Positions 1,626 to 34,999 of a stretch of DNA of 47,647 bases are shown here, in pieces. Source of the DNA: a virus (Duplodnaviria; Caudoviricetes). A model generated the notes under the pieces. The model ran no database searches, was not told where the DNA came from, and worked only from the letters and a program-made list of their open reading frames with translations. The stretch lies in IMG/VR virus record IMGVR_UViG_3300020519_000124, positions 1-47,647 of that record; one strand, 5' to 3'. A program made the position numbers and the translations under genes. The first letter of the stretch is position 1, and every line of letters starts with the position of its first letter.

Positions 1626-1652
1626 ATCCTGAGCATGATCTAAAACTGCTCA
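1626..1652 (+). ncRNA. H-type pseudoknot motif, copy 1
   Basis: ATC-C-TGAGCA-T-GAT-CTAAAAC-TGCTCA. Confidence 0.75.
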
Positions 1653-1730
1653 ACAAAAATCCCGGCGTGTCTTCCACAGGGTTATACACAGGGTGATTTA
1701 CGACACATTTTAAGATTCCCCCAGATTTTA

Positions 1731-1771
1731 CGGCGTGTCGAATTGAAAATGTCAGTAGGAGATGATAGGCT
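1731..1771 (+). promoter_or_regulatory. composite promoter: GTGTC box, -35, TGTCAG element and extended -10 (copy 3)
   Basis: CGGCGTGTC-gaa-TTGAAA-a-TGTCAG-taggagatga-TAGGCT. Confidence 0.75.
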
Positions 1772-1801
1772 AGAAGCCTAAACCTAATGAAAGGAAAACT
1801 A

Positions 1802-2299
1802 ATGGGATTAGATATGTATTTACAAGCCAAGAAGCACTTGGAAAAAGTGAATTGGAACGCACTAAGAGATAATGATGAATTATCTTATGACTCACCTGAA
1901 GCGGTATATCCGCAATTCAATAATCTAATGGAACTAACACAGTTATCCAATGTCGCAACAGATATCTATGGCGCAAGCGTAGAAGTCACTTGTGCTTATT
2001 GGCGCAAGGCTAATCAGATACACTCTTGGTTTGTCAAAAATGTTCAAAAAGGAATTGACGACTGCGGTGATTACTATGTATCACAAGATAAACTAATTGA
2101 ATTGCTTGCTATTTGTAAGCACTCGCTAGAAAATAAAGACCCTAGCCTATTGCCACCACAGGAAGGATTTTTCTTTGGTGGAACGGATATCGACCAATGG
2201 TATTGGAGAGATTTAGAGAATACTATTGAGCAATTAGAGCGTATTCTTGCTCTACCCGAATTGTCCGATTTGTCCTTTTCATACCATTCGTCTTGGTAA
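1802..2299 (+). CDS. conserved phage hypothetical protein (MGLDMYL...YWRKANQIH family)
   Basis: Recognisable widespread phage motif; AAAGGAAA RBS. Confidence 0.8.
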   Translation: MGLDMYLQAKKHLEKVNWNALRDNDELSYDSPEAVYPQFNNLMELTQLSNVATDIYGASVEVTCAYWRKANQIHSWFVKNVQKGIDDCGDYYVSQDKLIELLAICKHSLENKDPSLLPPQEGFFFGGTDIDQWYWRDLENTIEQLERILALPELSDLSFSYHSSW

Positions 2300-2319
2300 G
2301 GGCTTGGTAGGGTTGAAAA

Positions 2320-2341
2320 TGTCAGCCCTACCTGATAGGAT
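2320..2341 (+). promoter_or_regulatory. TGTCAG-N10 promoter, copy 4
   Basis: TTGAAA-a-TGTCAG-ccctacctga-TAGGAT. Confidence 0.75.
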
Positions 2342-2368
2342 TTCAGTATGAACAGAAAGAAGGAAAAA

Positions 2369-3346
2369 ATGGATAAACTAGACTACGCACTAAGCGCAAT
2401 TCGCTCTTGTTTTATTTGCGAAGGTAGAGGACACCTCTATTGGGGAAATGGCGAGGACTACGACACAGAAACTTGTGAGTGTAATACTTATGACATTATT
2501 CTTGATGATGACGGAGATGTTATTTGGGATAATGGTTTGCTAAGTGAGCCTGAATTGGCTATCTTTGGAAGCAAGGAGGCTAACTAAAATGGGAAGTAAT
2601 TTCGCTAATGAAATGGCAGACGGAACTCTTGCTGAATTAGGTATCCAATTAGATATTGAAACACAGATAGCAATTCACCTATCTAGTAATCACTATCCTC
2701 CAGTGCCTAAAGAAATGGTCGCACCTTGTATTGAGGCTATTGACGCAGTAAATGACTTAGGACTATGGGACTTAGAAATACCACTACCTCAAGGCGTATC
2801 TTGGAGAGGTTTGACTACTGCCCCCGCATGGTCTATTATTGAATCACACCACCTAAATGCGTGGCTTATTGAAAGGGAATACTAAAATGGAATACTCATA
2901 CGCAATTACCGCAACCTATGATAACGATACTGCACCACAATGGGTTGGTCGTTATTCAGACGCAATTAGCGCAGTATCAGAATGGAATAAAATTGTAGAT
3001 TGGGGATTCGCAGATGAATACGCAACCTATAATTTCTCAGAGCCTAGTGGCAAAATGCACACCAAGATTTTTTATCGCAACGGAACAGTTGGAGGAAAGT
3101 AAAATGTCTGATACAATAAATAGCATGGAACTAATTTATGCAGATGAACTCAAGCCAGATCAGTTAATGATTGGCGATTTAATTAAAGTTGGTGATGACA
3201 TTGTTGAGGTTATGTTTATTGAAAGTGATTCAACCGCAGACAATTGGACTATTCAGACTAAGAATGAGTTTGATGAGTTAGAGTTTGCCACTTATTCATA
3301 CACCGATTCAATTCCTTTGTATGTCTTTATAGAAACATATGAGTAA
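2369..3346 (+). CDS. four small hypothetical ORFs (2369-2587 with CxxC/CxC, 2589-2885, 2887-3102, 3104-3346)
   Basis: Tightly packed, each with a GGAG/AGGG-type RBS; starts trimmed from the ORF track. Confidence 0.75.
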
Positions 3347-3803
3347 TAATACTATTGTTCGCTGCACATATTGTGAGATTCAGATAACTCCACAATCTCA
3401 ATCTCACAAAATAGTTTTAGAAAAGCACCTAGAAAAACATCCAGAACTAAAAGGAACTATCTGGTGTGAATACTGCAACAAGACATATAAAAACAATGCT
3501 GCAAAAAAAATGGTGGTTGTAGGAAATGTTAGAAGACAAAAAGTTGCAAGAATTAAAATGAGTAAAGGTTGTGAGTGGGAAGGTGGTTGTGAGTATAAAA
3601 TTACAGACCACAAACAACTTGAACTTGACCATATTAACCCAACACTAAAACTTGCAGCAGTTTCTACAATGTTGCAACAAACCAAAAAGTATCCTTGGGA
3701 AATTGTAGAACAAGAAATAGCAAAGTGCAGAGTGTTATGCAAAATGCATCACGCAATTGCACCAACAACTACTAGAAAAAGACGACACTTAATTGCCGTG
3801 TAG
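3339..3803 (+). CDS. HNH endonuclease with N-terminal zinc finger
   Basis: CxxC...HxxxH, then LELDHINP...KCRVLCKMHH. Confidence 0.75.
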   Translation: MSNNTIVRCTYCEIQITPQSQSHKIVLEKHLEKHPELKGTIWCEYCNKTYKNNAAKKMVVVGNVRRQKVARIKMSKGCEWEGGCEYKITDHKQLELDHINPTLKLAAVSTMLQQTKKYPWEIVEQEIAKCRVLCKMHHAIAPTTTRKRRHLIAV

Positions 3804-5229: not shown

Positions 5230-5394
5230 ATGTCAGTAGCAACCGCAACTTACAAAGTAGGCGACACCTACACAACTCAAAAGTCAAAGGTAAGTGGTAT
5301 CATCACAGAAATCACACCACAGGCTAACGGAAATGTTCGTGTCAAGTTAGATGTAAATGGCAAGCCACGATACACAACTTGGACAGCCAAGTAA
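5230..5394 (+). CDS. 54-aa SH3/KOW-like protein, paralog B
   Basis: MSVATATYKVGDTYTTQKSKVSGIITEITP...VRVKLDVNGKPRY; leader duplicated with paralog A. Confidence 0.75.
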   Translation: MSVATATYKVGDTYTTQKSKVSGIITEITPQANGNVRVKLDVNGKPRYTTWTAK

Positions 5395-5409: not shown

Positions 5410-5440
5410 TAGTCCTGAGTATGACTACAAAAACTGCTCA
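5410..5440 (+). ncRNA. H-type pseudoknot motif, copy 2
   Basis: TAGTC-C-TGAGTA-T-GACTA-CAAAAAC-TGCTCA. Confidence 0.8.
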
Positions 5441-5447
5441 CCAAAAT

Positions 5448-5469
5448 TGTCAGAGCAAAGTGCTATGAT
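5448..5469 (+). promoter_or_regulatory. TGTCAG-N10 promoter, copy 6
   Basis: TGTCAG-agcaaagtgc-TATGAT. Confidence 0.75.
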
Positions 5470-5504
5470 AGAACCCCCAACTAATAGAAAAGGAAAAAGA
5501 CCCA

Positions 5505-5927
5505 ATGTCAAGAGGAAAAGCAATTAGTGTAAAGATACCCACAGTAAAAGTTATCAAGGCACTAGAAACAAAGTTAGCAGAACTAGAGGCTAACTACAAA
5601 ACACAAGACGAGAACGAAGCAAAGTATCAAAAGCAATACGAGAAGTGGCAGAAGGAAATTGCTAAGTGGGCAGTTGCTCAATTTAGCAAGGCTGACAACA
5701 TCAGAACTAACTATCGTTCTTGGAACGAAAGCCTCAATGTTGATTTTGACATCAAAACAAATGGCACAGACTTTCCAAAAGAGCCTGAGCGTGGTTTTGA
5801 GCAAATCCACCGCCACGAATACAACTCTCAAAAAGAGGAAATGTCTAACGCAATTCGTATCCTAAAGATGACAGATGAGGAAGTAGTCAATACTTCTACC
5901 TACAACGCAGTTGCTCGTTATCTATAA
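5505..5927 (+). CDS. hypothetical protein
   Basis: 140-aa ORF with RBS and its own promoter. Confidence 0.8.
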   Translation: MSRGKAISVKIPTVKVIKALETKLAELEANYKTQDENEAKYQKQYEKWQKEIAKWAVAQFSKADNIRTNYRSWNESLNVDFDIKTNGTDFPKEPERGFEQIHRHEYNSQKEEMSNAIRILKMTDEEVVNTSTYNAVARYL

Positions 5928-5939: not shown

Positions 5940-5967
5940 CAACCTGAGTATGTTGCTAAACTGCTCA
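5940..5967 (+). ncRNA. H-type pseudoknot motif, copy 3
   Basis: CAAC-C-TGAGTA-T-GTTG-CTAAAC-TGCTCA. Confidence 0.8.
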
Positions 5968-6631: not shown

Positions 6632-7054
6632 ATGGACCAGTCAATAGAAACACCAGTAGTACATGCAACAGAAGACTTTCTTAAGTCACAAATCGAAAGT
6701 GCTAAGGTAGAAATTCAGCAACTACACGAGCACATTCAAAAAGTAACTCAGCGCTCATATGGTGAGGCTGCAGAGCGTAACCGTATGCGTAATGAAATGC
6801 AAGAGTGGACCTTAGAGGCCTTGGACGCTAGCGATATCACAGAATCACAGGCGGAAGAAATTGCAATGATTTGCGGATTTGATTTAACAAAAGAATTTGA
6901 AGTAGAAGTTACAGTAATGTACTCGGTTACAGTTAATGCACGTAATGAAGAAGAAGCACAGAATGCAATTCACGATATTGATTTTGATACCGTCGACTAC
7001 AACAGTGATTCAATTTCTTATCTATCATCCTCAATTGATAGAGTAGACATTTAG
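6632..7054 (+). CDS. acidic hypothetical protein
   Basis: 140-aa ORF, GAAAGAGG RBS. Confidence 0.8.
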   Translation: MDQSIETPVVHATEDFLKSQIESAKVEIQQLHEHIQKVTQRSYGEAAERNRMRNEMQEWTLEALDASDITESQAEEIAMICGFDLTKEFEVEVTVMYSVTVNARNEEEAQNAIHDIDFDTVDYNSDSISYLSSSIDRVDI

Positions 7055-7100
7055 TAGGGGGCTACTAATAGACATGTCGAATGTCTCTAAACTAGGCAAG

Positions 7101-7130
7101 GGCCCTGAGCACGGCCATGTAAACTGCTCA
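7101..7130 (+). ncRNA. H-type pseudoknot motif, copy 4 (degenerate tandem copy at 7070-7098)
   Basis: GGCC-C-TGAGCA-C-GGCC-ATGTAAAC-TGCTCA. Confidence 0.8.
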
Positions 7131-7168
7131 ATAAAAATTTCCGGCCCCGCAAACTTTGATTTGTCAAG

Positions 7169-7263
7169 CGACACGCCGTGTGATTAAGATCACTTTAAGA
7201 AATGTCCAATTTGTCCATGTTTAACTATCCCGATTTGCATTTGTCAGCCCATACTGCTATACT
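7169..7263 (+). promoter_or_regulatory. regulatory cassette: inverted GACAC box, CRP-type site and TGTCAG promoter copy 8
   Basis: CGACACGCCG 7169-7178; TGTGA-TTAAGA-TCACT 7179-7194; TGTCAG-cccatactgc-TATACT 7242-7263. Confidence 0.7.
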
Positions 7264-7295
7264 TGAAATTCAACAACAACAAAAGGAGAAAACTC

Positions 7296-8312
7296 ATGGC
7301 ACATGAAATCGAAACACAAAATGGTAAGGCTTCATTCGCATCATTTCGTGAACCCGCTTGGCATGGATTGGGTACCGTATTTACAGAAGAAAAAACAACA
7401 AAAGAAATGTTAGATTTGGCTAATCTTTCTAATTGGAATGTTCGTCTGGAAGATTTGGAAACCCCCTCACATTTATCAAGCGATAAAAACTATCAGTATG
7501 TATTGCGTACCAATCCTACTGACAACTCTCAGACCGACATTCTTGGTGTCGTTGGTGAGCGTTATCATGTTATGCAGAACGAAGATTTATTTTCATTCGG
7601 TGATAACATTCTAGACGGCGGAGGTCGTTGGGAAACGGCTGGCTCAATCAAGGGTGGTCGTGTCGTGTTCGGTGCATTAGCACTAGAGCGTGAAACAATT
7701 CTAGACCCTAGCGGTGTTGCAGATAAGGTCAAGACTTATTTACTTATCAATACATCACATGACGGCTCAATCGCTATTCAAGCAAGCATTACACCTGTTC
7801 GTGTTGTGTGCGCTAACACTCTCAATCTTGCACTTGGCTCACTCAAGAAAAAGAATGGTGTCAAGCAATCTTTCAAGATTCGCCACACTCAGACCGCTTC
7901 TGGTAAGGTTGCCGTTGCTCGTGAAACTTTGGGTCTTGCCCATAAGTACATGGATTCTTTTGATGTTATGGCTAACGCTATGATTCAGAAAGAAGTATCC
8001 GCTCAGCAATTCAATGACATCATTCTCGCTGCTTATCCTAAGCCTGAGAAAGATTCTAAGGGTGCTTTCAAGAAGTGGGAAAACAAGGTTGATGTTATCA
8101 ATGACATCTACACAGGCGAATTCAATGGCATGATTGCTGGAAACGCTTGGGGTGCTTTCAATGCACTAACAGAACGCCTTGATTGGTATCGCTCTGCTCG
8201 TGGTGGTTCTAACGAATCAATTCTTGCAAGCGCAAGCGGTTTTGACCCTGCTATCAATGCAGAAAAAAATCGTCTGCTAAAAGTTGTGCAAAATGTTTTG
8301 CAGATTGCATAA
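7296..8312 (+). CDS. DUF932-family phage/plasmid protein
   Basis: PAWHGLG, ETAGSIKGGRVVF, YLLINTSHDGS, TPVRVVCANTL, RHT. Confidence 0.9.
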   Translation: MAHEIETQNGKASFASFREPAWHGLGTVFTEEKTTKEMLDLANLSNWNVRLEDLETPSHLSSDKNYQYVLRTNPTDNSQTDILGVVGERYHVMQNEDLFSFGDNILDGGGRWETAGSIKGGRVVFGALALERETILDPSGVADKVKTYLLINTSHDGSIAIQASITPVRVVCANTLNLALGSLKKKNGVKQSFKIRHTQTASGKVAVARETLGLAHKYMDSFDVMANAMIQKEVSAQQFNDIILAAYPKPEKDSKGAFKKWENKVDVINDIYTGEFNGMIAGNAWGAFNALTERLDWYRSARGGSNESILASASGFDPAINAEKNRLLKVVQNVLQIA

Positions 8313-8321: not shown

Positions 8322-8349
8322 ATTCCTGAGCAAGAATAAAAACTGCTCA
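8322..8349 (+). ncRNA. H-type pseudoknot motif, copy 5
   Basis: ATTC-C-TGAGCA-A-GAAT-AAAAAC-TGCTCA, 6 nt before tRNA-Asp. Confidence 0.8.
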
Positions 8350-8355: not shown

Positions 8356-8431
8356 GGTTCCGTAGATTAGTCTGGTTTAAATCGCTACACTGTCACTGTA
8401 GAGATCGTGGGTTCAAATCCCATCGGAATCG
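8356..8431 (+). tRNA. tRNA-Asp(GTC)
   Basis: Acceptor GGTTCCG/CGGAATC, anticodon arm CTACA-CTGTCAC-TGTAG, GTTCAAATC T loop; no encoded CCA. Confidence 0.92.
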
Positions 8432-8456
8432 CAAATGCGCCCCGGCACATGCATAT

Positions 8457-16628: not shown

Positions 16629-17540
16629 ATGAACGAAAATCTTTTGTTTTACAGAACATTAAAGGAAGCATCAAGAAGACATCCAAGTGAACTTGGTAAA
16701 ACGGTTTATTCTAATCAAGATATTTTAGAGGAAATATCTTACAATATCAATAGCCATGGCTACAGATCTGAAGAATTTAACAAAAACAACGAAGTAGTGG
16801 TTTTGGGCTGCTCTCAAACCTACGGCTCTGGGATGCACAACGAACTTACATGGCCTGAGTTTTTTTGTAATTTTACAAATCAAAAATATTCAAGGCTTGC
16901 AATTCCAGGAGATTCCATAGGTGCTCAAGTATATAAAGCCTTTAAATATTTTGAAGAAGTAGGAAATCCAAAATTAGTTATTGGGCTATTTCCACTATAT
17001 AGACTAGAATATATTTCTGTGCCAGGAAAATTTGAAGGTGATAATCCAAGAAATGGGGCACAAAGATCAGAGTTATCAGTAGGAATAGCATTCTTTTATC
17101 AACAATACATAACAAAAATTTCAAAAGTACCACACAACCCAGAATATGTTATTCCAAAAGAGTTTGTGATGTTTTATAATTTTATGCTTATAAAAATGCT
17201 TGAACAATACTGTGAATCACACAATATAAAATTTATATGGAGCATATATGATAGCAAAGAAGATAAAAAAGAAATGGAGTTTTCTTCTTACAACATTTTA
17301 AAAAATTATTTAAACACATCAGATTTACTTCAGCAGCCAGACGATCAACCACAAAGTCACCTTTCAAATTGCTCTATATCGTCTCAAAAAGAATATTGCG
17401 GAAAATTTTCTCGACACAAACTATACTCTTGGGCAGCAGATACTGTTTCAGAAAAACAATTAGGTCATTGGGGAATACATGTAAATCACCATATTGCAAA
17501 ACTATTTGCAGATAAATATATGGAGATAAAAAATGATTAA
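16629..17540 (+). CDS. SGNH-hydrolase-like protein
   Basis: NSHGYR...LGCSQTYG...GHWG..H. Confidence 0.6.
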   Translation: MNENLLFYRTLKEASRRHPSELGKTVYSNQDILEEISYNINSHGYRSEEFNKNNEVVVLGCSQTYGSGMHNELTWPEFFCNFTNQKYSRLAIPGDSIGAQVYKAFKYFEEVGNPKLVIGLFPLYRLEYISVPGKFEGDNPRNGAQRSELSVGIAFFYQQYITKISKVPHNPEYVIPKEFVMFYNFMLIKMLEQYCESHNIKFIWSIYDSKEDKKEMEFSSYNILKNYLNTSDLLQQPDDQPQSHLSNCSISSQKEYCGKFSRHKLYSWAADTVSEKQLGHWGIHVNHHIAKLFADKYMEIKND

Positions 17541-17618
17541 CAATATTAGATGGCAGTACTACAAAATAGTCATATACTTTAAAAATAAAAAAAGAAAAAA
17601 GAAAGACTTTATATATTA

Positions 17619-19040: not shown

Positions 19041-19044
19041 CAAT

Positions 19045-19890: not shown

Positions 19891-19898
19891 TAGGAATA

Positions 19899-19961
19899 AG
19901 GGTGTGGTTGGCCTATATTTGTCGGGAAACTTTTATAGTCTATGTTGCAACACCACACCCT
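19899..19961 (+). ncRNA. candidate structured leader or small RNA
   Basis: 10-bp closing stem AGGGTGTGGT/ACCACACCCT starting 7 nt after TG-C-TATAAT. Confidence 0.4.
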
Positions 19962-19984
19962 CCTAATTTTTGAGGTGAACTTGT

Positions 19985-21049
19985 TTGATTAAAGATTCAA
20001 TATTTATACCAATAGCAGCCTGTGAAGAAAGATTTATAGAGCAAACTGTAAAAAGTGCTTTGTCTAACGCCGAAAATCCAGACAATATCTATTTTGGTAT
20101 ATTTAACAACATACTAAAGAAAGAACATTCTTTACTAGATAATGACTTTTTACTAAATAATGATCAAATTTTTTATGTTGAACTAATAACTCCAGCGCCA
20201 ATGGGTACTGGTTTTGGAAGAATGAATGCTTCTTTGTTGCAATTTAAAGAATTTGACTACATGTTTCAGATAGATGCTCATACATTTTTTAGCAAAAAAT
20301 GGGATAATCAACTAATAAATATTTTTAATAAAATTAAAGAACAAGAAAATATTAATGAAAATAAGTTGGTTCTTTCTGCGTCAAGTGGATTTACTTGGAC
20401 TTACTACGATGAAAATCCTGAAAAAGTTTATATCATTGACAAAGAAAACAAAACAGCACTCGAAATAGATCCTTTAAATTTAGAAAAAAATGCTGAAGAA
20501 TTAATAAACAGGGGCATGACAAAACTCAAATTTGTTTATGATGGAAAACAAAATAACAATTTAGTTAAAGACCATGTAAATTTCCCAATAGTTTATGGCG
20601 ATAACTATATAGATAAAAAAGAATACGAAGAATCAAACGGAGTTCATGGAACTTTTATGTTTTCTAAAGCAAAACTAAATAGAGAAGTTCTTCATGATCC
20701 AGAGGATCATTTTCATGGAGATCAAACAAACTATTCTATTAGGCTTTTAAGCAGAGGATATAAAATTTTTAGTCCCAAGTATCCGACCATTGCTGTTTTA
20801 AATCAAGTATATATAGATAAAGATTTTAAAGAAGATGCATCTATTCCATTAGGCAAAGGCCACAACTGGAAGACATATGAAGCAAATAAGGTTGGATCAG
20901 ACTACTTAGAGACAAAAATAAATAACTCTGCAACAAATTTTCAACAAATAATATCTGGAGATTATTTTGGATACTGGGGAACAACAGACAAAGATTCTCT
21001 AAATAAAGTAAAAAATCAAATTGGCTATCCAATGGACAACCAAAAATGA
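19985..21049 (+). CDS. GT-A glycosyltransferase, GT60/Skp1-Hyp GlcNAc transferase-like
   Basis: IPIAA..E, TV..A..NA..P, GxGxGR, FQIDAHT.F...WD, GDQ...SIRL..RGY. Confidence 0.7.
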   Translation: MIKDSIFIPIAACEERFIEQTVKSALSNAENPDNIYFGIFNNILKKEHSLLDNDFLLNNDQIFYVELITPAPMGTGFGRMNASLLQFKEFDYMFQIDAHTFFSKKWDNQLINIFNKIKEQENINENKLVLSASSGFTWTYYDENPEKVYIIDKENKTALEIDPLNLEKNAEELINRGMTKLKFVYDGKQNNNLVKDHVNFPIVYGDNYIDKKEYEESNGVHGTFMFSKAKLNREVLHDPEDHFHGDQTNYSIRLLSRGYKIFSPKYPTIAVLNQVYIDKDFKEDASIPLGKGHNWKTYEANKVGSDYLETKINNSATNFQQIISGDYFGYWGTTDKDSLNKVKNQIGYPMDNQK

Positions 21050-21193
21050 ATTTAGAAAATGAAATAAAAGATATACTTTTTGAAATAGGAAAGGAAATTA
21101 AGGTTCACAAACTTATTGATGGAAACCTCATTATAGAAATTGATTATGACAAGTATACTATTTCAATTATGGAACTAATTAAAAAATATTTAT

Positions 21194-21931
21194 CTAACGA
21201 CTAGGATTCCAAAACAAAGAATTATTTTCGTATATCTCTTTATCTAGTTTAAAGTTTTCAAGTATTGAATCTTTTTCGCTTTGATCTAAAGAATTAAATA
21301 ATCTTTCTGAAGCATCATTCTTAAAATATGTTTTATTAATTTGTGACAAATCAATATTTAATTCTACACCCAAATCTTCTGATATCTTTTTAACTAACAA
21401 CTCATAGTCCATAGACTCTAACTCGTCAGTCCTAATAAATAGGTTTGTTCTCTTAATTCTGTCGTATATCAACTCTGTATCATATTCTTTTTGTTCATTA
21501 TGAAAAAATTGTGCTTCTTTGATAACAGACATTGCTGCTGGATCTGGACTTAAAGCAAAATTGTGAGACTGAAAATCTTTCATGTATGGCCATGTGGATA
21601 ATTTTTCAAACAACTCTTCTTTTTCAACATGAAGATTTTCTCCATTGATTGTGTGCCAATTTTCTTTGTCTATTAAGTCTGCTCTACCTGCAGCAGCGTG
21701 GCATACGGAACTAACAAAAAATTCACAAGGCTCTCTAAAAACTGAAATGACATATGTTTCATCATCTATAAAGAATGGCCATCCACCGTGTTGTCTCATG
21801 TCTTCTGGCATTCTTAAATACTCAATGCCGTGCTTAGCAAGAGTCTCTTCCATAGGTCTAAGGATGTATTTTGTTAAAAACCTTCCACCAGTTTTTGGTA
21901 TGTGTAAAAAATAGACTTTATTGTATTTCAT
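21194..21931 (-). CDS. sulfotransferase family protein
   Basis: FLHIPKTGG 5'-PSB motif; FREP...VS. Confidence 0.75.
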   Translation of the reverse strand: MKYNKVYFLHIPKTGGRFLTKYILRPMEETLAKHGIEYLRMPEDMRQHGGWPFFIDDETYVISVFREPCEFFVSSVCHAAAGRADLIDKENWHTINGENLHVEKEELFEKLSTWPYMKDFQSHNFALSPDPAAMSVIKEAQFFHNEQKEYDTELIYDRIKRTNLFIRTDELESMDYELLVKKISEDLGVELNIDLSQINKTYFKNDASERLFNSLDQSEKDSILENFKLDKEIYENNSLFWNPSR

Positions 21932-22935: not shown

Positions 22936-23018
22936 GCCCCATACAGGCAATTCAGGCACGAAGGCCACGGTATATATCAATGGGTAACTAAGCCATCTCT
23001 AAGGTCCTGTATGGGGAC
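22936..23018 (-). ncRNA. candidate small RNA B
   Basis: 11-bp closing stem CCCCATACAGG/CCTGTATGGGG beginning just after TG-T-TACAAT. Confidence 0.5.
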
Positions 23019-23041
23019 ATATATATTGTAACATAATAATG

Positions 23042-23144
23042 GAGCAGTTTAATAGACTTGCTCAGGTCCCCCAGGTAATGACCCTGGTCCTCCGTACTCA
23101 GCAATAAGGTTGCTATAAGCAACTGCATGTATCATGACGGAATA
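23042..23144 (-). ncRNA. candidate small RNA A ending in pseudoknot copy 6 (23042-23069)
   Basis: TATAAT 23151-23156; stems TCCGT/ACGGA, GTTGCT/AGCAAC, CCAGG/CCTGG; then GGAC-C-TGAGCA-A-GTCT-ATTAAAC-TGCTC. Confidence 0.55.
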
Positions 23145-23156
23145 CTATCTATTATA

Positions 23157-27902: not shown

Positions 27903-28187
27903 TTAGACCCAATGTTTAATTATAGCACTTACGGCAAGAATTGTCCACAGGATATTAAACCAAATAATTGTAGGCAAAGTCTTAACTGTCGATGACCAAA
28001 TCAATGCAAGGCTTGATACCAATGCAAAGATGTATAGCCACCACCATTGCTTACCGAATAGTAAGCCTGGAAATATAATAGATATTTTTGTCATAAAAGC
28101 AAAGAACTCAACAGTATTTGGCTTGTTCCAATACTCTTTGTGTCTCATTGTCTTTAGAGCATTAATCCACTCTGTTCTAAATTTCAT
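27903..28187 (-). CDS. small membrane protein
   Basis: Hydrophobic, Trp-rich 94 aa. Confidence 0.7.
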   Translation of the reverse strand: MKFRTEWINALKTMRHKEYWNKPNTVEFFAFMTKISIIFPGLLFGKQWWWLYIFALVSSLALIWSSTVKTLPTIIWFNILWTILAVSAIIKHWV

Positions 28188-29728
28188 TTTAATCCCTCCA
28201 AAAATTGTCTATGATCTATACATTCTGACACCTTGTAGTCTTGATATTTCTTGTAATAGTCATACATATCAGCACCCTTTTTATAGTCTGCAGAATTTTC
28301 TATATATGCTTTTGCAATATCTTTATTAATTGTGTTGTGTGCAGAGCCTACAAAGGTCCAACTATTTGATGACCAGTGCTCTCCAGAGTCAAACTTGTTT
28401 GGAAGTCTGACCTTCCACTTGCTAATTTTTTCTTGCAGATCTTTTGGTGCATTCTCATATGAAAACTTTTTCCAAAACTCTGTATCATTTCTTAAAGTCA
28501 TATAGTGAAAATATATAAATTCAGAAATATTATTGTTCATACTAACTATGTTCTTGTTAAACTCTTGTCTTATCTCTTTCGAGTTCTCGAATAGCCATAG
28601 CGGATTGTCAAATATCTGTGTCAACTCTACAATGCTAACCCAAATTGATGTTGCTTCTAGTGGCTCAACAAAGTTTGCTGCAAGGCCTACCGCAACACAG
28701 TTATTGATCCAGGGCTCTTCATAGCATCCAGCATTAAACTTAAAGCCACCCTTGTCTTTTCTTGGATAGGTTGGCTCATAGCCTAAGAACTCTTCTATCT
28801 CTTTCACTGCTTCTTCTTCAGAGATAAGGGATGAGTCGTAGACATACCCACAGCCAAACCTGTTCTGGAGTGGAATCTTCCACATCCATCCGTATTTCAT
28901 AGCAATTGCTTCTGTGTAGGATGGAATCTTATCTGTCATCTCAACAAAAAATGGAATAGCAGAGTCTACTGGAAGGAAATCTTTGTAACTTTTCCATTTA
29001 GCATCATATACTTTCCCAATGATTAGCCTATGAAATCCGCTACAATCAAAAACAAAATCACACATAATCTTTTCATCATTTTCTAAAGTTAAACCATTTA
29101 CATAGTTATCTTTATCTAGTGAGACATTTTTTATTGTGCCATCAACTACTTTGATTCCTCTTTCTATTCCTATTTCTTTTAGTCTATTTGCTAGTTTGGT
29201 AGCATTAAAATGTATAGAAATATTTCCTATTTTTTTATAATCATCTATAGGATCTTTTTTAGATACAAAACCGAAATCTCTCTTGTTTGCTTCCAAAGTG
29301 AATGGAACCTTGTTGGCTTCTGAAATTTTTTCTGTAAAGTCTATCTTCTTTACGCTATTATTTAAAGCAATGCTTGCTGCAACAAGAGGGCTATTAGAAA
29401 GATACCTATCGTACACAGCATCAAAGCCTAGCGACCTATCTGTTGTAGAAAAACCATGGTAATAAAACTCTCCATCATTATTCCAATTTGTAAACTTGAT
29501 TCCATTTTTAATAGTTGCATCACAATTTTTTATTAGGTCAGATAAAGGAATATTTAAATGGTCAAAGAAGTCTGCAAGGTATGGGGTAGACCCTTCTCCT
29601 GCTCCCAAGATTCCTATTTCTGTTGACTCTATAACTGTTATGTTTAGATCTGGGTATGACCTTTGTGCTTTGAGGGCAGTAAGCCAACCAGCACTTCCGC
29701 CACCAACAATAACTATATTCTTTGTCAT
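28184..29728 (-). CDS. tryptophan-halogenase-family flavoprotein
   Basis: GGGSAG, GAGEGS, FDCSGF, GWMWKIP (WxWxIP), FVEPLEATSI. Confidence 0.9.
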   Translation of the reverse strand: MTKNIVIVGGGSAGWLTALKAQRSYPDLNITVIESTEIGILGAGEGSTPYLADFFDHLNIPLSDLIKNCDATIKNGIKFTNWNNDGEFYYHGFSTTDRSLGFDAVYDRYLSNSPLVAASIALNNSVKKIDFTEKISEANKVPFTLEANKRDFGFVSKKDPIDDYKKIGNISIHFNATKLANRLKEIGIERGIKVVDGTIKNVSLDKDNYVNGLTLENDEKIMCDFVFDCSGFHRLIIGKVYDAKWKSYKDFLPVDSAIPFFVEMTDKIPSYTEAIAMKYGWMWKIPLQNRFGCGYVYDSSLISEEEAVKEIEEFLGYEPTYPRKDKGGFKFNAGCYEEPWINNCVAVGLAANFVEPLEATSIWVSIVELTQIFDNPLWLFENSKEIRQEFNKNIVSMNNNISEFIYFHYMTLRNDTEFWKKFSYENAPKDLQEKISKWKVRLPNKFDSGEHWSSNSWTFVGSAHNTINKDIAKAYIENSADYKKGADMYDYYKKYQDYKVSECIDHRQFLEGLK

Positions 29729-29931
29729 TATTTTCTTCCCCATTGTATATAGTTCCATCCACGCTCATGTGCGTAGTAAATGAATATTTTAACTACCGTT
29801 TCCCAAAACGCAATAGTTACGGAAAGAGCAGCATTTTTTGTTATGACATAGGCAACAGCAACAGAGGAAAGAGTTCCCCATATGCGATAACTTAATGCTT
29901 TGGCAAATGATCTAGCCTTGGTTACTTTCAT
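29728..29931 (-). CDS. DUF2061 membrane protein
   Basis: RSFAKALSYR...YYAHERGW. Confidence 0.85.
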   Translation of the reverse strand: MKVTKARSFAKALSYRIWGTLSSVAVAYVITKNAALSVTIAFWETVVKIFIYYAHERGWNYIQWGRK

Positions 29932-29979
29932 GAAGGCCACTCCATATTGTCAGGGCCTTTACTAATTGCTTTCCAAATT

Positions 29980-30738
29980 TTAGATACCCATCTCTTTACG
30001 TTTTTGCGTAGCCGATATAGCATGAATGTCTGCCCCCAAATCTACTTGTTCAATCTTGTATCCCACATCTCTACCATATACAATATTAGTAATGTTAGGT
30101 AGTCTTAGCACTAATGCCCCATCCATAAATTCATCCTTGGCAATATATTCCTTTACCTGATCAAACTTAAGTGGATCTTTTTCACTTGTATTGTATGTAT
30201 TACGTACTCCAAGAAGTACCTGCTCTGTTCTTTTCCCTGCCTCTTTGTAAAGAGCGTGATGTCCTTCATGCCATGGCTGATATCTGCCCAGCATAAGGGT
30301 TGTAGGGGCTGTCCAGTCGTGTAACTGGCAAGCAGTAATGATAAGGTCAGCCTCTTCTTCTACGGTCATGCCACAGGGGATTCTGACATCGCATGACTCT
30401 GGATCTTCCCACATCTTATTTGTATCTTCAAATCTTCCAGACTCAATTCTGTCTACCCAAATTAAAATATCTGGATTGCCAAATGCTGCACGAGTCAAGT
30501 CGGTAGGGCATACAAAGTCAACGATTACTGGAGCAACTCCCTGCTTAGCAATAAGTCTTGCCATGTCCCCCATACGTCTTGCCTGTTCAATTCTATCTTC
30601 AGGGCTAAAACCTAAGTCTGAGTTTACTGTTGCACGGACCTCATCTGCATTAAGGTGAATGGCGTTAATTCTTTCTTTGAGTGCCTTGGCCAACTCTGTC
30701 TTGCCTGCACCTGGCAGACCAATAATCTGAATAATCAT
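29980..30738 (-). CDS. cysC: adenylylsulfate kinase fused to an HxGH nucleotidyltransferase domain
   Basis: GLPGAGKT, ADEVR...DLGFS.EDR; C-terminal GRYQPWHEGH...ISAT..R. Confidence 0.8.
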   Translation of the reverse strand: MIIQIIGLPGAGKTELAKALKERINAIHLNADEVRATVNSDLGFSPEDRIEQARRMGDMARLIAKQGVAPVIVDFVCPTDLTRAAFGNPDILIWVDRIESGRFEDTNKMWEDPESCDVRIPCGMTVEEEADLIITACQLHDWTAPTTLMLGRYQPWHEGHHALYKEAGKRTEQVLLGVRNTYNTSEKDPLKFDQVKEYIAKDEFMDGALVLRLPNITNIVYGRDVGYKIEQVDLGADIHAISATQKRKEMGI

Positions 30739-31298
30739 TTTTTCCCTATCTCTGTGTTTGGCATAATGTCAATTAACAAATGCACCCTATCTATTTCACT
30801 GCCATTATTTACATAGTGAGTTCTTGAGTTGTTTATTTCCCAACATTCTCCAGTACCCATCTTAACCCTATCATCTCCTACACCAAAGAATACACTGTCA
30901 GAAGTAACTACTGGGATGTGGTTTCTTCTTGAAAGCATGAGATAGTCTCCTGCATCATGATGATGTGCTATATCTTGACCTGCTTTTAACTTAATCAAAA
31001 GCACCATACCTCTGACACCCTTGTGGATTCTTTCAAGGTCTGAGATTATTGGCTCAAGAATTTCAAGCAGCCCAGTATCATTAGATGTTTTCTGAGTAGA
31101 AAATTCTTCTCCTTCTTTCCACATAAGATCTGCGGTATAGACAAAGTATGAGTTAGTATCTTTATGAACATAGTAGTTATCTTGTCTTGATGTATTGATA
31201 AACCACTCTTCAGAAAAACTATCTATATAGTTTTTGATGGGCTCAACATCATACTTACTGTGTTGCTTAAAGTTAAAGTCTTCTAGCGTCTTTCTCAT
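30735..31298 (-). CDS. aspartyl/asparaginyl beta-hydroxylase-like 2OG-Fe oxygenase
   Basis: HHD, R.HIP..T, WEINN...H.V.N....R.HL..D. Confidence 0.8.
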   Translation of the reverse strand: MRKTLEDFNFKQHSKYDVEPIKNYIDSFSEEWFINTSRQDNYYVHKDTNSYFVYTADLMWKEGEEFSTQKTSNDTGLLEILEPIISDLERIHKGVRGMVLLIKLKAGQDIAHHHDAGDYLMLSRRNHIPVVTSDSVFFGVGDDRVKMGTGECWEINNSRTHYVNNGSEIDRVHLLIDIMPNTEIGKK

Positions 31299-31879
31299 TT
31301 TGCCTCCAGGGTCTGATTAAAATCTTTAGAATATCCAAAGTTAATAAAGTCAGAACTGTAGAAATCCTGAACCATTTTTATTGCCTCATCTGAATATTCT
31401 TGTATATATGATTCTACCACATAGTTGCCTACATTGTAAAATCCAAGTTCCCAGCCGAGTTCATCCTCTAACTCTTTTAGGTTCTCAAACTTATAAAGTC
31501 TCTCTACCTGCAGATCATCCTGGTCCATGATATAAAAAGACTGGGGGATGTGGAGTAGTGGGCTTACTGTAGATATTTTTCCCTGTTTAATATTATCTAG
31601 GTACTGTGCAAAAGAGATGTCTGTTTGATTAGTTTTATTGTATTGCTTGTAGCAACTATAGGTTCTTGTGTAGGGGTTTCTTACAACAGCAAAAGAGAAG
31701 ACTCTCTCGTCTATTAGGTTTGCTTCTTTTAGATATGAGTATGGATCGTGATGCCTTGGCCATTCTCTCTTCCAGTTGTCTAAATTTTTTTCATCTAATA
31801 TTTTAGAAATTGAAGATCCTGCAGTCTTTGGTATGTGAACAAAAAGTACTGCACTATACTCTTTATCTCTAACTATCAT
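31295..31879 (-). CDS. sulfotransferase family 2 protein
   Basis: FVHIPKTAGSS, VRNPYTRTYS, Y..DF..FGY. Confidence 0.85.
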   Translation of the reverse strand: MIVRDKEYSAVLFVHIPKTAGSSISKILDEKNLDNWKREWPRHHDPYSYLKEANLIDERVFSFAVVRNPYTRTYSCYKQYNKTNQTDISFAQYLDNIKQGKISTVSPLLHIPQSFYIMDQDDLQVERLYKFENLKELEDELGWELGFYNVGNYVVESYIQEYSDEAIKMVQDFYSSDFINFGYSKDFNQTLEAK

Positions 31880-32699
31880 TTTCTGCATCCTCACTATTTA
31901 TTTCTTTAACAAGTCTATTTACTCTTATATCGTTCTGTTGGTTCCAGTCTGAGTCTAAAATTTCTGTATTCGTAAACAGTAGCAAATCAGTTATTCCCTC
32001 ATCCTTTAGATTAATTATCTTTTGTTTAACTGTTTGATAGTCTCCAATAATTGAAAAGTTTATGTGTCTAGGATTAGCAGGAATAATTTTTTCTTTATAC
32101 TCTTCAATCTCTTTGTTTGATTCTAAGATGGTAACATTTGCGCTGACCATTCTTTTTTCAATTCCGTCAAACTTTTTTATATTCTCTCTATATGTATCCA
32201 ACATGCATAGCGATGTTCCCCCATGAATTTTTACAGTCTCTAAGGTGTAATCAGAGTATCCGCTAAAAACCATAGGAGGTCTTTCAGAAACTGGACAGTA
32301 AAGTTTATACATTTTTACAAAATTTCTTAAAAATGTAGTTCTTTTTTGTATAGTATCTATTGGTTCTGATTCTAAAAAAACATCTAACTCTATATCTGGC
32401 TCATCTGATCTATTATGAAAATCACCAGCAATCCAATTAATTATAAGTCTGTTACTTTCTATCTCATTATATGCTTTAGTCATCATTGAAAGATACTGAG
32501 GACTTACATGATACGGTCTTAGTGCAATCATATATTTTAGTTTGTGGCCAGGGGTAAGAGAAGCAGCAGACTTTACAAAATAGTCTGGTTGTTGTGAATG
32601 AAAAGTTAACAAAACTGACTTATAGCCACATTCTTCTAGGTAATGAGAAAGAGCATCAAGAGGAAGTTGGGACTCTCTTAGCATGTAATGAATATTCAT
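31869..32699 (-). CDS. luciferase-like (LLM) protein, paralog of 24358
   Basis: LKYMIALRPYHVSPQYL...RLIINWIAG. Confidence 0.65.
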   Translation of the reverse strand: MNIHYMLRESQLPLDALSHYLEECGYKSVLLTFHSQQPDYFVKSAASLTPGHKLKYMIALRPYHVSPQYLSMMTKAYNEIESNRLIINWIAGDFHNRSDEPDIELDVFLESEPIDTIQKRTTFLRNFVKMYKLYCPVSERPPMVFSGYSDYTLETVKIHGGTSLCMLDTYRENIKKFDGIEKRMVSANVTILESNKEIEEYKEKIIPANPRHINFSIIGDYQTVKQKIINLKDEGITDLLLFTNTEILDSDWNQQNDIRVNRLVKEINSEDAENDS

Positions 32700-32926
32700 T
32701 ATTGAGCAAGTTTTTCTCGTTCATCAATAATTGTTATAGCAAACTTCATCATTTTGTCATAGCCTACTGCATTATCCATGATTTTATTATAGTGATGACC
32801 ACAAAATAGCAAGTCTCCGTTTAACCCAGTTACTTGAACCAGGGCTTCCGCATTGCACCTATCGCATCTATTTAAAGGTGACAATTTCCATTCTGGTTTT
32901 ACATCATCTTTAAGCATTGTAAACAT
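32699..32926 (-). CDS. actinobacterial-type small zinc-finger protein
   Basis: RCDRC...LLFCGHH. Confidence 0.7.
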   Translation of the reverse strand: MFTMLKDDVKPEWKLSPLNRCDRCNAEALVQVTGLNGDLLFCGHHYNKIMDNAVGYDKMMKFAITIIDEREKLAQ

Positions 32927-32927
32927 A

Positions 32928-33113
32928 TTATACCTTCCGATTGTCGGTTTTATAAAATCCAGAGCCATTGAATGTGACTCCTATATTAGAGTATACACGA
33001 ACTAGGGACTGATTGCAAGTCTCACATTGATACCCTGGATCGTTTTCGGACATAGACCTAATCTTTGTATATCTTATTGCACAAGACATACAGTCATATT
33101 CATATGATGGCAT
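32928..33113 (-). CDS. FmdB-family zinc-ribbon protein
   Basis: MPSYEYDC..C...C..C...F.GSGFYKTD. Confidence 0.85.
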   Translation of the reverse strand: MPSYEYDCMSCAIRYTKIRSMSENDPGYQCETCNQSLVRVYSNIGVTFNGSGFYKTDNRKV

Positions 33114-33222
33114 TATTTCTTTTTCGTTTTAGCCTTTACTTGCCATACTGGTAGGTTTAATTGGTCTCCAGACCACTCATACCCTAATGCTTTTACGATA
33201 AACTTAATTATTTTTATTCTCA

Positions 33223-33441
33223 TTATTTAATTCTCCCACCAAATTTTGACCAAACTCTTTCATGAATATAGAAGAAAGTCATTTCTAGTGCTAGATATGA
33301 CAGTCCATATAGACCAACATACTCCCACTCTGCCTCTCCAGTGTAATACTTAAGTACGAAATAGATTATTCCAGAAACAAAAGTAAAGTGTACAAATGGC
33401 CAACTTGCAGTTTTTAGTAATGACTTTCTTCTAGACTCCAT
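33223..33441 (-). CDS. second DUF2061 protein
   Basis: KSLLKTASW...FYIHERVW. Confidence 0.8.
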   Translation of the reverse strand: MESRRKSLLKTASWPFVHFTFVSGIIYFVLKYYTGEAEWEYVGLYGLSYLALEMTFFYIHERVWSKFGGRIK

Positions 33442-34088
33442 TATAGTGCTACCATTCCTTTTCCTCCGCCACCTACGGATTTCTTTACAACAGGCTTTGC
33501 AGCCTTCTTAACAGACTTCTTAGCGGGTACTACTGGTTGCTCTGCTAGTTTGTTTAGCAATGGAAGATCTTCTTCGCCAGTATAAACTGGACGACCCCAG
33601 CCAACAACTCCATTGATTAGTTTTTTCTTGTTGTTCTTTACATATGCACGTGTTTTTTCTACGCACATACCGCCATTTCGCTGGTCTCCCTTTGCAGTGC
33701 CTGATGTGTTGCCTTCAATAACCTGGATTGTTCCATCTCCATTATTCTTAATGCAAATACCAACATGTGAAATACGATTTACTCCGTCTTCTGGGAAATC
33801 AAAATAGATCCAGTCTCCTGGGGTTGGGTCGTCATTACGAGCATCTGCCCAACGATCATTTTTCTTAAACCAATCAGATGCTGCAACGGTTGATGCAGAC
33901 TTTGGATACTTCTTTGGATTTAATCCTGATGTAAATGCACACCAAGAAACAAATGATTGGCACCATGGTTGGAAATTAACACCAGTCCACTTACCATATT
34001 TTGTTTCATTATCTTTAGGACCTTCAATAGTTCCTACTTCTTTCTTTGCAACTTCAATAATTGCTTCTACCGAACCTTTTACCGACAT
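33441..34088 (-). CDS. CHAP-domain peptidoglycan amidase (endolysin-like)
   Basis: PWCQSFVSW, PGD...F, SHVG, IEGNT. Confidence 0.85.
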   Translation of the reverse strand: MSVKGSVEAIIEVAKKEVGTIEGPKDNETKYGKWTGVNFQPWCQSFVSWCAFTSGLNPKKYPKSASTVAASDWFKKNDRWADARNDDPTPGDWIYFDFPEDGVNRISHVGICIKNNGDGTIQVIEGNTSGTAKGDQRNGGMCVEKTRAYVKNNKKKLINGVVGWGRPVYTGEEDLPLLNKLAEQPVVPAKKSVKKAAKPVVKKSVGGGGKGMVAL

Positions 34089-34157
34089 GCTTCCTCCTTG
34101 TTAATGTAGCATACATATATTATAGCAGAACAAGGTGTGTCTGTCAATAAGTGTGTA

Positions 34158-34949
34158 TTATATTTTTGCTAAGGATGGATTAAGGGCAGATCTTGCTCCC
34201 GCAATAGCCTTTTCAATTTCAGAACAAACAAAGGCAAACTCTTCTTCAAAGATTTCTGGAGATCTGTCAGAGCCCATCGCTGGGTTCTTTCCTTCTGCAA
34301 TTAGAGCCTCTTTTAAGGTTTTTTCTATGTCATAATTTAAGACTGTGCATGTAAAATGTTTCATAACATAGCCGTCCTTATCAATCAAATACTTCTCATA
34401 ATTGCCACCCATTTGAACTCCATCATAAAATCCAATGTTTAGCCAAGGTGATTTAAATTTTCCTTCAACATTCCCATCTTCTAAAGAATCTCTCATTAAC
34501 TGTAACATTTTCATCTGTGATGAAATTTCTGCATATACTTCGTGAGGTGGTAGTGTTGGTTGTCCTAGTCCGTTAGTTCCAGCGCTAAGTCCGTTCTCTA
34601 ACACTTCGTTTAGTAACTCATGAGGAACCGAAGAAACCATCTCTGAGTACTTAAAGGTTGTATTGTAAATTTCTTCCCCGTAGGCTTTTGAATCTAAACC
34701 ACAAGTAATTCCTTGTGACCATCTTCCTTTGGTAACTCCTGGACCGCAGTAGTCGTTTGTTGGTATAGCAATTATTTCAAAATCTTCGCTGTTATACTTA
34801 TCTTGAAGCATCTGTAAAACTTCTAGTTGGTTGGCGTTACCGCAACCGACTGTGGTATTTGCTACCAGTGTAACCTTGCCTTTGTATTGTTCAAGGTGGT
34901 TTGGGGTGCCTTCTGCTGAGTTTAGAGGAATATCATAGATTGATTTCAT
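34158..34949 (-). CDS. glutathione-peroxidase-like protein (Cys type)
   Basis: SIYDI...YKGKVTLVAN...CG...Q; NYEKYLIDKDG. Confidence 0.75.
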   Translation of the reverse strand: MKSIYDIPLNSAEGTPNHLEQYKGKVTLVANTTVGCGNANQLEVLQMLQDKYNSEDFEIIAIPTNDYCGPGVTKGRWSQGITCGLDSKAYGEEIYNTTFKYSEMVSSVPHELLNEVLENGLSAGTNGLGQPTLPPHEVYAEISSQMKMLQLMRDSLEDGNVEGKFKSPWLNIGFYDGVQMGGNYEKYLIDKDGYVMKHFTCTVLNYDIEKTLKEALIAEGKNPAMGSDRSPEIFEEEFAFVCSEIEKAIAGARSALNPSLAKI

Positions 34950-34973
34950 GATTTTATTATAACATGTTTTTAA

Positions 34974-34999
34974 GGGCAGTTTTAGTCATACCCAGGACT
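34974..34999 (-). ncRNA. H-type pseudoknot motif, copy 7 (compensatory change in stem 2)
   Basis: AGTC-C-TGGGTA-T-GACT-AAAAC-TGCCC. Confidence 0.75.

Follow-up and report, generated by a model that had tools for sequence, protein, structure and literature searches.

A phage contig of 47,647 nt (the window, i.e., the whole stretch of DNA that was analyzed) carries seven copies of a predicted pseudoknot of about 27 nt, hereafter the knot, and a decayed eighth. Comparison with related sequences strongly supports an H-type pseudoknot that would act at the RNA level, and the searches for an Rfam match or a published description, which found neither, support the view that the family is uncatalogued. 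Among the functions first listed for it, a 3' barrier or processing boundary appears to fit best. The likely role, to which we give about an even chance, would be that of a 3' cap at which 3'-to-5' exonucleases stall once the RNA has been cut, or has ended, just downstream.

A strict motif pattern matched five times in the window and never in 100 shuffles. When stem 2 was left free, the descriptor matched exactly seven times, versus three matches in 20 shuffles (0.15 expected per shuffle). The stem 1 arms are those given in the initial annotation (ATC/GAT, TAGTC/GACTA, CAAC/GTTG, GGCC/GGCC, ATTC/GAAT, GGAC/GTCT, AGTC/GACT), and the compensatory change that it reported in stem 2 of copy 7 is present. 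As it had also stated, every copy lies in the sense of the local genes, six follow a stop codon within 5-50 nt (spacers to stem 1 of 7, 15, 12, 46, 9 and 5 nt for copies 1-5 and 7), and none of the seven is followed by a U tract. It had further counted one degenerate copy, for which the best candidate has A for C in loop 1 and five of six stem-2 pairs, with one mismatch; a relative (L188) has an intact knot at this place. The features are the following:

1626-1652, plus strand: pseudoknot copy 1, 7 nt past the stop of a 33-codon ORF (1517-1618)
5410-5440, plus strand: pseudoknot copy 2, 15 nt past the stop of ORF 5230-5394
5940-5967, plus strand: pseudoknot copy 3, 12 nt past the stop of ORF 5505-5927 and 27 nt ahead of the start of ORF 5995
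7070-7098, plus strand: decayed copy, 15 nt past the stop of ORF 6632-7054, in tandem with copy 4 and directly 5' of it
7101-7130, plus strand: pseudoknot copy 4, descriptor match, 46 nt past the upstream stop
8322-8349, plus strand: pseudoknot copy 5, 9 nt past the stop of ORF 7263-8312 (phrog_1221), with a 6-nt gap to tRNA-Asp
8356-8432, plus strand: tRNA-Asp(GTC), adjoining copy 5 on its 3' side
23041-23069, minus strand: pseudoknot copy 6, ending a promoter-led non-coding stretch; an extended -10-like site follows at about 23025-23033
23070-23144, minus strand: body of a candidate non-coding RNA that ends in copy 6
23151-23156, minus strand: TATAAT -10-like hexamer directly past the Hsp20 stop, kept in relatives
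34956-34961, minus strand: TATAAT after copy 7, with the next start codon at 34949
34973-34999, minus strand: pseudoknot copy 7, 5 nt past the stop of ORF 35005-35877, with an A-U to G-C change in stem 2

The consensus of the knot is stem 1 (3-5 bp, last pair C-G), C-U, GNNYA, N, stem 1', NNN-AAAC, and URNNY. In a wider alignment where the stems were left free, both covaried, in agreement with the pseudoknot proposed initially. The inner three pairs of stem 1 were intact in all 93 unselected copies, with two-sided changes in 59, 42, and 2 of them, and the inner pairs of stem 2 in 87-89 of 90 copies, with two-sided changes in 42, 27, and 12. G-U pairs are common in stem 2 and strand-specific. 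The covariation of stem 1, the retention of G-U pairs, and the variable spacing of the arms led us to reject the reading of the motif as a DNA site. Around ten nucleotides are invariant across phyla. Of the two loop motifs thought to be invariant, the loop-1 C is so: with the positions left free, it occurs in 126 of 126 copies, and the loop-3 AAAC in 119. Loop 2 is a single variable base (U in 78, A in 36, C in 10, and G in 2 of the 126 copies). Copies 6 and 7 of the window and 25 of 90 relatives lack pairing at the outer U-A position of stem 2. Since this pair is optional, stem 2 comprises 5-6 bp and loop 1 reads C or CU, which relaxes the 6 bp and 1-nt loop given before. ViennaRNA, which cannot fold pseudoknots, returned one stem or the other.

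To place the family, one stem-2 variant alone was found in about 5,400 IMG/VR stretches, and we estimate the whole family at roughly 15-20 thousand in viral sequence, i.e., of the order of ten thousand. Its carriers are phages of Actinobacteria, Cyanobacteria, Proteobacteria, Bacteroidetes, and Firmicutes, including the cultured phages Labelle, Molivia, ParMal1, and S-H35, as well as mobile elements of many phyla; the searched host genomes have 1-3 copies each. The knot keeps a fixed strand and placement with respect to the upstream gene, and in Molivia it follows the SSB gene rather than preceding it. The genes beside the knot share no pathway (window neighbours and 45 proteins beside GTDB copies), and some copies lie in an antirestriction neighbourhood (ArdA). 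Matches in an Erwinia phage (stem 1 of only 2 bp) and a Staphylococcus phage (stem 2 of 4 bp) failed the descriptor. Rfam 15 gave no match on the copies, either with the whole window at E<=10 or with a 66-nt query around copy 2, and 53 related loci matched only in neighbouring elements (tRNA, hammerheads, DUF2800, nhaA-I); these covariance models take no account of pseudoknots and have little power for motifs of 27 nt. No published description was found in a search that left outside the large motif alignments of PMC5737381 and PMC10690425. The earlier statement that no known family fits thus holds, also after comparison with STAXI and preQ1-I. This makes a family of such size, spread over phages of five bacterial phyla, one that Rfam lacks, and little is known of how phages control how long each gene's RNA lasts within a long transcript that has no terminator hairpins. 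In the cultured phages, the knot is a defined and mutable 27-nt element.

The position of the knot relative to the upstream stop codon was analyzed in 264 copies with an upstream ORF of at least 40 codons, from 344 examined. Spacers of 1-3 nt were never found, those of 4, 5, and 6 nt occurred 12, 36, and 39 times, and a long tail follows. Across 168 unrelated gene families the pattern is the same (none at 1-3 nt; 8, 22, and 26 at 4, 5, and 6 nt). The mode of 5-6 nt and the hard edge at 4 nt match the length of the ribosome's mRNA channel. According to PMC7282821, the bacterial channel extends 11 nt past the first P-site base; hence, stem 1 at 5-6 nt past a stop in the A site would lie at the channel edge. 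The spacing edge reports, at genome scale, on the footprint of the terminating ribosome. The upstream stops were UAA in 129, UAG in 42, and UGA in 26 of 197 cases, the next in-frame stop lies a median of 8 codons beyond, and the reading frames relative to the knot are distributed 90/68/55. With no open frame beyond the stop and no frame preference in these counts, a recoding pseudoknot (readthrough or frameshift) was rejected. The same lack of frame preference, and three minigenes that use UAG upstream instead, led us to reject readthrough or selenocysteine insertion at the UGA of the motif.

What lies downstream bears on the 3' cap. A tRNA starts 2-13 nt 3' of the knot in 25 of 349 copies (six tRNA kinds), whereas one precedes it in a single copy; tRNA-Asp makes up 13 of the 25 cases, probably one orthologous locus. 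A type III hammerhead cuts 5-7 nt 3' of the knot in loci L143 (twice), L195, and L271. The association is real but rare: a co-occurrence scan gave 27 loci, with a full knot and a hammerhead in three (two distinct). After tRNA maturation or a hammerhead cut, the knot would stay on the upstream piece, and at copy 5 the 5' maturation of tRNA-Asp would leave it as the 3' end of the upstream RNA. The proposal that copy 6 ends a small RNA agrees with relatives: in 24 of 56 Hsp20-downstream regions, a promoter-led non-coding RNA ends in the knot, usually followed by a new -10 site, and a 28-codon ORF through copy 6 was discarded, being broken in relatives (L580, L572). Hence, no ribosome is needed there. 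The claim that the copies mark transcript 3' ends remains an inference: 95 of the 349 precede an RBS and start within 45 nt and show no evident cut site, which counts against a cap, as do the 167 of the 349 without a downstream label. A promoter-like site stands before some copies, and many are located within operons. A tRNA-like CCA end is not general (CCA after the knot in 24/239 viral and 3/120 GTDB copies). In metatranscriptome assemblies of four runs, contigs break at knot copies, a pattern that repeats produce in assembly graphs and that speaks neither for nor against RNA ends there.

These observations suggest how a cap could work. Phages and mobile elements would place a portable knot of about 27 nt behind genes and small RNAs, and the conserved loop C and AAAC would make contacts in the major and minor grooves that lock the fold, as other compact knots do. 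Given the minimum gap of 4-6 nt, stem 1 would not reach into the mRNA channel of a ribosome that terminates but stay just beyond it, and the knot would remain folded during translation. A cut just downstream, by RNase P, by a hammerhead, or by a host endonuclease in the G-poor tail, would then leave 2-13 nt between the knot and the new end, and the upstream message or small RNA would thereby outlive the cut.

It is rather unlikely that the knot is a roadblock or insulator at the mRNA entry channel, which would slow or clear the terminating ribosome and, like the ribosome termination structure, block re-initiation or scanning into the gene or RNA that follows, with deliberate stalling in minigenes of 20 codons. 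In its favour, besides the match to the channel length, stem-loops at this distance hinder A-site binding (PMC7282821) and structures right past stops curb re-initiation (PMC7518266). Among 120 GTDB matches, 22 have a conserved ORF of 18-24 codons that stops inside the knot, often followed by a separate terminator hairpin, and the register from start to knot hardly departs from 20 codons, regardless of the stop. In these minigenes, the ribosome has to move into the knot and a 3' hairpin is already present, which speaks against the 3' cap; the eight peptides scanned matched no NCBIfam family. However, 97 of the 264 spacers lie outside 4-11 nt, so exact contact is not required, and the knot ends non-coding RNAs without a conserved ORF.

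We consider improbable a 5' element that serves the downstream gene, either by halting 5'-to-3' decay by RNase J or by binding S1 as a standby or enhancer site. Five of the 56 Hsp20-downstream regions, and eight near-miss variants, have a TATAAT-like hexamer some 10 nt ahead of the knot, with an RBS after it, which would place the knot at a 5' end, against the 3' cap. The copies ahead of an RBS are also in line with such a role, as is the binding of H-type pseudoknots by S1 (reported in PMC7708055 and PMC10931766). But the next start lies at widely varying distances, mostly 10-45 nt, the knot would be parted from the downstream RNA by tRNA and hammerhead cuts, and -10-like hexamers show no overall peak just before the knot. 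They peak 10-19 nt past it (22 versus 6 on the other strand), which favours the 3' cap but partly reflects the Hsp20 locus.

The terminator function suggested initially fits poorly, and a non-canonical or partial terminator, or a pause site, is quite improbable. A U tract directly follows 20 of 239 viral copies, versus 0-4 at control offsets, new -10 sites often follow the knot, and ViennaRNA folds stem 2 as a hairpin in six of the seven window copies. Yet a U tract occurs in only 25 of the 349 copies and in none in the window, which does not fit an intrinsic terminator (G+C hairpin with an immediate U tract). Location inside operons also fits poorly, tRNAs and RBSs follow with no room for a promoter, and 13 of the 349 copies are followed by a separate terminator. 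Terminator-like hairpins in the same loci lie at least 12 nt from the stop in 19 of 21 cases (a small control), versus 5-6 nt for the knot. Highly improbable, finally, is a self-cleaving ribozyme, ligand-binding aptamer, or specific protein-binding site: the invariant nucleotides and the sharing of intergenic slots with hammerheads favour it, but loop 2 is variable, the neighbouring genes have no common pathway, a partner would have to be universal across many host phyla, and self-cleavage would be redundant directly before intact hammerheads.

More broadly, we tentatively propose a host-independent 27-nt end-cap against 3' exonucleases and ribosomes, possibly among the commonest uncatalogued phage RNA folds. 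Together with RNase P sites and self-cleaving ribozymes, it would let phages divide long transcripts into modules that are each stabilised on their own; in several bacterial phyla, it would have been recruited to stall ribosomes in 20-codon Cys/His minigenes that lack annotation. If true, a minimal 3' cap or ribosome insulator that works across phyla would be useful as a synthetic part.

REP elements are known, along with other stem-loops between cistrons or at 3' ends, to stop 3' exonucleases. Like REP, the knot is short, dispersed, non-coding, and sense-strand, lies shortly past stops both within and at the ends of operons, and is proposed to protect upstream RNA. Unlike the palindromic REP hairpin, it is a two-stem pseudoknot with invariant loops; each host genome searched has 1-3 copies, the carriers are phages and mobile elements of different phyla, and we saw no link to transposases. 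The preQ1-I riboswitch has an A-rich loop 3 and a conserved ligand-pairing C in loop 2, and lies in the 5' UTR of queuosine genes. The knot (RF00522 was rejected) shares the small size and A-rich loop 3, whereas its loop 2 is variable, with C in 10/126 copies, and no queuosine gene occurs among the window neighbours or the 45 proteins beside GTDB copies. Luteoviral pseudoknots sit at the ribosome entry channel, but in coding overlaps, where they drive -1 frameshifting; the knot shows no frame signal. The topological likeness noted initially is loose: PMC2873773 gives 26-33 nt, a stem 1 of 4-5 bp, a short loop 1, and a 1-nt loop 2, as here, but a stem 2 of 3 bp instead of 5-6 bp. STAXI is a pseudoknot in 2-3 tandem repeats with frequent UUCG loops in Enterobacteriales (PMC2864571). 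It resembles the knot in being small and in the ArdA neighbourhood of some copies, and RF01728 was rejected, as knot copies are mostly single and dispersed, lack UUCG, and differ in sequence from the STAXI alignment rows. The likeness to wcaG RNA (RF01761), which was rejected, is limited to a few bases, and the CUGCU strand pairs with a downstream GGCAG in wcaG and upstream in the knot. The T4/T2 gene 32 operator is likewise a compact phage H-type knot with coaxial stems, but, as described in PMC3014915, a single 5' operator bound by gp32, whereas the knot is multicopy, stop-anchored, and gene-independent; its downstream neighbours (unrelated genes, tRNAs, and RNAs) exclude an operator of this type. 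Like the ribosome termination structure, the knot begins at the edge of the terminating ribosome's footprint. That structure is, in PMC7518266, a folding-energy trend without a shared motif or mention of pseudoknots, whereas the knot has one defined fold and is also found at the end of non-coding RNAs.

All seven copies of the knot, a predicted H-type RNA pseudoknot of about 27 nt, were found where the initial annotation had placed them: 1626-1652, 5410-5440, 5940-5967, 7101-7130 and 8322-8349 on the plus strand (copies 1 to 5), and 23041-23069 and 34973-34999 on the minus strand (copies 6 and 7). A strict pattern gave five matches in the window and none in 100 shuffles, and a descriptor fixing only the loop-1 C, AAAC and the pairing returned the seven copies, with three hits across 20 shuffled windows. 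Under a looser score the next tier held a decayed copy (7070-7098), tied with two intragenic near-matches; a relative (L188) has an intact knot at this place. The stretches after copies 1, 2 and 4 (about 1655-1780, 5446-5470 and 7135-7260) share recurring motifs of promoter-region type: a -10-like hexamer with a TGTCAG box ~10 nt upstream of it, 9-mers that we take to be DnaA-box-like, and a GACACGCC repeat. The window, a viral contig of 47,647 bases, encodes terminase, WhiB-like regulator, Hsp20, endolysin, UvsX-like and RuvC-like proteins and four tRNAs, and the WhiB-like sequence points to an actinobacterial host. Auxiliary genes at 16629-21931 and 28184-32699 are for carbamoyltransferase, glycosyltransferases, sulfotransferases and a tryptophan-halogenase-like protein.

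Each structural element was tested in a set where the search pattern had left it free; the counts are not phylogeny-corrected, and the sequences span unrelated phages. When stem 1 was left free (93 of 140 copies, those with a 7-nt middle), no copy lost any of the inner three pairs, and two-sided changes filled 141 cells versus 47 in shuffles (0 of 500 shuffles reached 141), which bears out the claim that this stem varies yet always pairs. In the stem-2-free set (90 of 124), two-sided changes numbered 42, 27 and 12 at three inner pairs and filled 111 cells versus 36 in shuffles. The outer U-A pair failed in 25 of the 90, and this U therefore behaves as part of loop 1. The loop-1 C and the loop-3 AAAC had been described as invariant; among 126 distinct copies with loops left free, the C is kept in every one (126/126), and loop 3 ends in AAAC in 119, AAAG in four and AATC in three. 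Loop 2 is a variable base. By analogy with solved compact knots, the loop-1 C and AAAC may make groove contacts. Over about nine bases 3' of the knot G is depleted (3-13% versus 22%); at the first two positions it would probably lengthen stem 2 at the expense of loop 1 and stem 1.

For the strict pattern, IMG/VR holds about 5,400 matching stretches (estimated from 2 of 64 parts); of the 140 fetched, 138 pair at three stem-1 positions or more if loop 2 can be 1-3 nt long. A pattern that fixes stem 1 and leaves stem 2 open fits about 3,000 stretches; among 124 distinct ones, 113 are paired throughout the five inner stem-2 positions, and the canonical stem 2 occurs in only 34. Scaling from either count gives a family of roughly 15-20 thousand stretches. 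In GTDB, about 300 stretches fit a stricter pattern, and 114 of the 120 fetched have a stem 1 of three pairs or more; 11 of 45 proteins beside these copies could be named, mostly as phage or mobile-element genes. Five genomes searched whole held one to three copies each. The knot occurs in cultured phages, including Labelle, ParMal1, S-EIVl, S-H35 and Molivia, and in the crAss-like record cr7_1; six of eight fetched records passed the descriptor. At L146, L156, L163 and L408, which are prophages of Firmicutes and a Staphylococcus phage, the knot or a variant with a 4-bp stem sits between head genes, immediately upstream of a scaffold-type gene. Upstream genes at Saccharibacteria and other GTDB loci (L139, L145, L165, L167, L169, L172, L182, L186) encode DUF3768, DUF2958, DUF7249 or ArdA, which suggests that these are cargo regions of mobile elements and not part of the core chromosome. 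We conclude that the knot is a real, very widespread and uncatalogued RNA pseudoknot of putative function.

Of 359 copies passing the descriptor, 344 had 200 bases of upstream sequence, and in 264 of those an ORF of at least 40 codons ended nearby. In these 264, the gap from stop codon to stem 1 was 4, 5, 6 or 7 nt in 12, 36, 39 and 22 cases and never 1-3 nt; nine copies lay at or before the stop, and the others tail out to 50 nt. This edge persists when the upstream proteins are grouped into 168 families, and annotated phages are consistent with it (the loop-1 C lies 9-14 nt past the stop). Terminator-like hairpins at the same loci (40 found, 21 with an ORF) stood at least 12 nt from the stop in 19 of 21. 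Readthrough is unsupported, as UAA dominates, the next stop follows at a median of 8 codons and the frame is not fixed. According to PMC7282821, the bacterial mRNA channel covers 11 nucleotides after the first P-site base, a reach of 5-6 nt past a stop codon in the A site. The sharp lower limit of the spacing and its long tail are more in keeping with exclusion plus compaction than with an obligatory contact.

It seems to us an even call whether the knot is a 3'-end cap: it would act on the upstream molecule, as a compact cap near that RNA's 3' end. 3' exonucleases are stopped by the hairpins of REP elements, which are stem-loops after stop codons. We prefer the cap because it is the only role compatible with nearly all settings, i.e., after stops, after non-coding RNAs, before promoters, and ahead of cuts by RNase P and hammerheads. 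It need not rule out the other roles considered below, as an unwinding-resistant knot would hinder nucleases and ribosomes alike.

In 22 of the 120 GTDB matches, an 18-24-codon minigene stops in, at or just before the knot.

Loci with a minigene stopping in, at or just before the knot (GTDB)
First part: L149, L150, L158, L161, L166, L170, L171, L177, L178, L192, L196
Second part: L200, L206, L214, L215, L220, L221, L224, L235, L236, L247, L250

These minigenes, often with a terminator hairpin following the knot, count against a 3' cap. A ribosome roadblock or insulator would explain both them and the stop spacing, and leaves the non-coding RNAs that end in the knot unexplained; we hold it to be unlikely. 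The minigenes are conserved and apparently unannotated, with a His-Cys-x2/3-Cys-type motif, mostly a strong RBS and often their own promoter-like site, and occur in Deltaproteobacteria, Actinobacteria, Aminicenantes, Chloroflexi and Firmicutes. Several have ArsR-, mercuric reductase- or arsenite methyltransferase-like neighbours (by eye). The eight peptides scanned had no NCBIfam match.

The suggestion that one copy ends a candidate sRNA gained support from the regions that follow Hsp20 homologues, which were collected irrespective of the knot: 33 of 56 distinct ones contain it, and in 24 it ends a promoter-led RNA of 70-100 nt, as does copy 6. An ORF through the latter RNA is not conserved in relatives. 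Five of the 56 regions, plus eight variants failing the descriptor, have a TATAAT-like hexamer ~10 nt before the knot and an RBS after it, an order that counts against the 3' cap. A 5' shield or S1 site would fit this minority of copies and is doubtful as a general role. The slot after Hsp20 (23070-23156, minus strand; L542-L621 in relatives) is occupied by tRNAs or by promoter-led non-coding RNAs, which are interchangeable and come in at least three sequence types. After copy 6, a second candidate small RNA (22937-23016, minus strand), led by an extended -10 site and with an 11-bp stem pairing both ends, recurs after Hsp20 in many relatives and has no Rfam match.

RNase P cleaves tRNA precursors at the 5' end of the tRNA. 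Among 349 copies surveyed downstream, 25 have a tRNA 2-13 nt 3' of the knot (six kinds, 13 being Asp) and one has a tRNA upstream. An RBS and start lie within 45 nt 3' of 95 copies, and a -10-like site within the same distance of 28, versus 13 in each downstream control window. A terminator hairpin follows 13 copies and a U tract 25; for the latter subset the knot may be a terminator, an improbable role overall. Eight are followed by a hammerhead pattern (five complete by eye, one above the Rfam cut-off, one just below), and the four type III hammerheads cut 5-7 nt 3' of the knot. No downstream label applied to 167. L143 (whole locus) and L195 are arrays in which a small gene is followed by the knot, a hammerhead ribozyme, an RBS and the next gene; of the four knots in L143, two precede hammerheads and two plain hairpins. 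The DUF2800 RNA follows six of the 349 by pattern, and Rfam confirms it in all three loci scanned, two of them among the six. In the following seven loci the knot abuts the first base of this motif, and it may be its unrecognised upstream partner.

Loci where the knot adjoins the DUF2800 RNA motif (RF02960)
L162, L180, L229: Rfam-confirmed
L034, L115, L232, L393: by pattern

The copies had no Rfam 15 match, in the whole window or with a 66-base query, in line with the initial annotation, which could assign no known family; the knot belongs to none of the families tested. No description of it was found in the accessible parts of open rather than subscription papers, including PMC5737381 (without its supplement), PMC2864571 (with supplements), 10.64898/2026.09.22.753630, PMC3014915, PMC2873773, PMC3997798, PMC10931766 and PMC7708055. 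Six supplementary files of PMC10690425 gave no match; since three others, two of them very large, lay outside the search, the knot may be among its 10,000 candidates. Among known systems, the ribosome termination structure occupies the same position as the knot (PMC7518266), and the knot, as a cap, would work like REP elements or terminal stem-loops.
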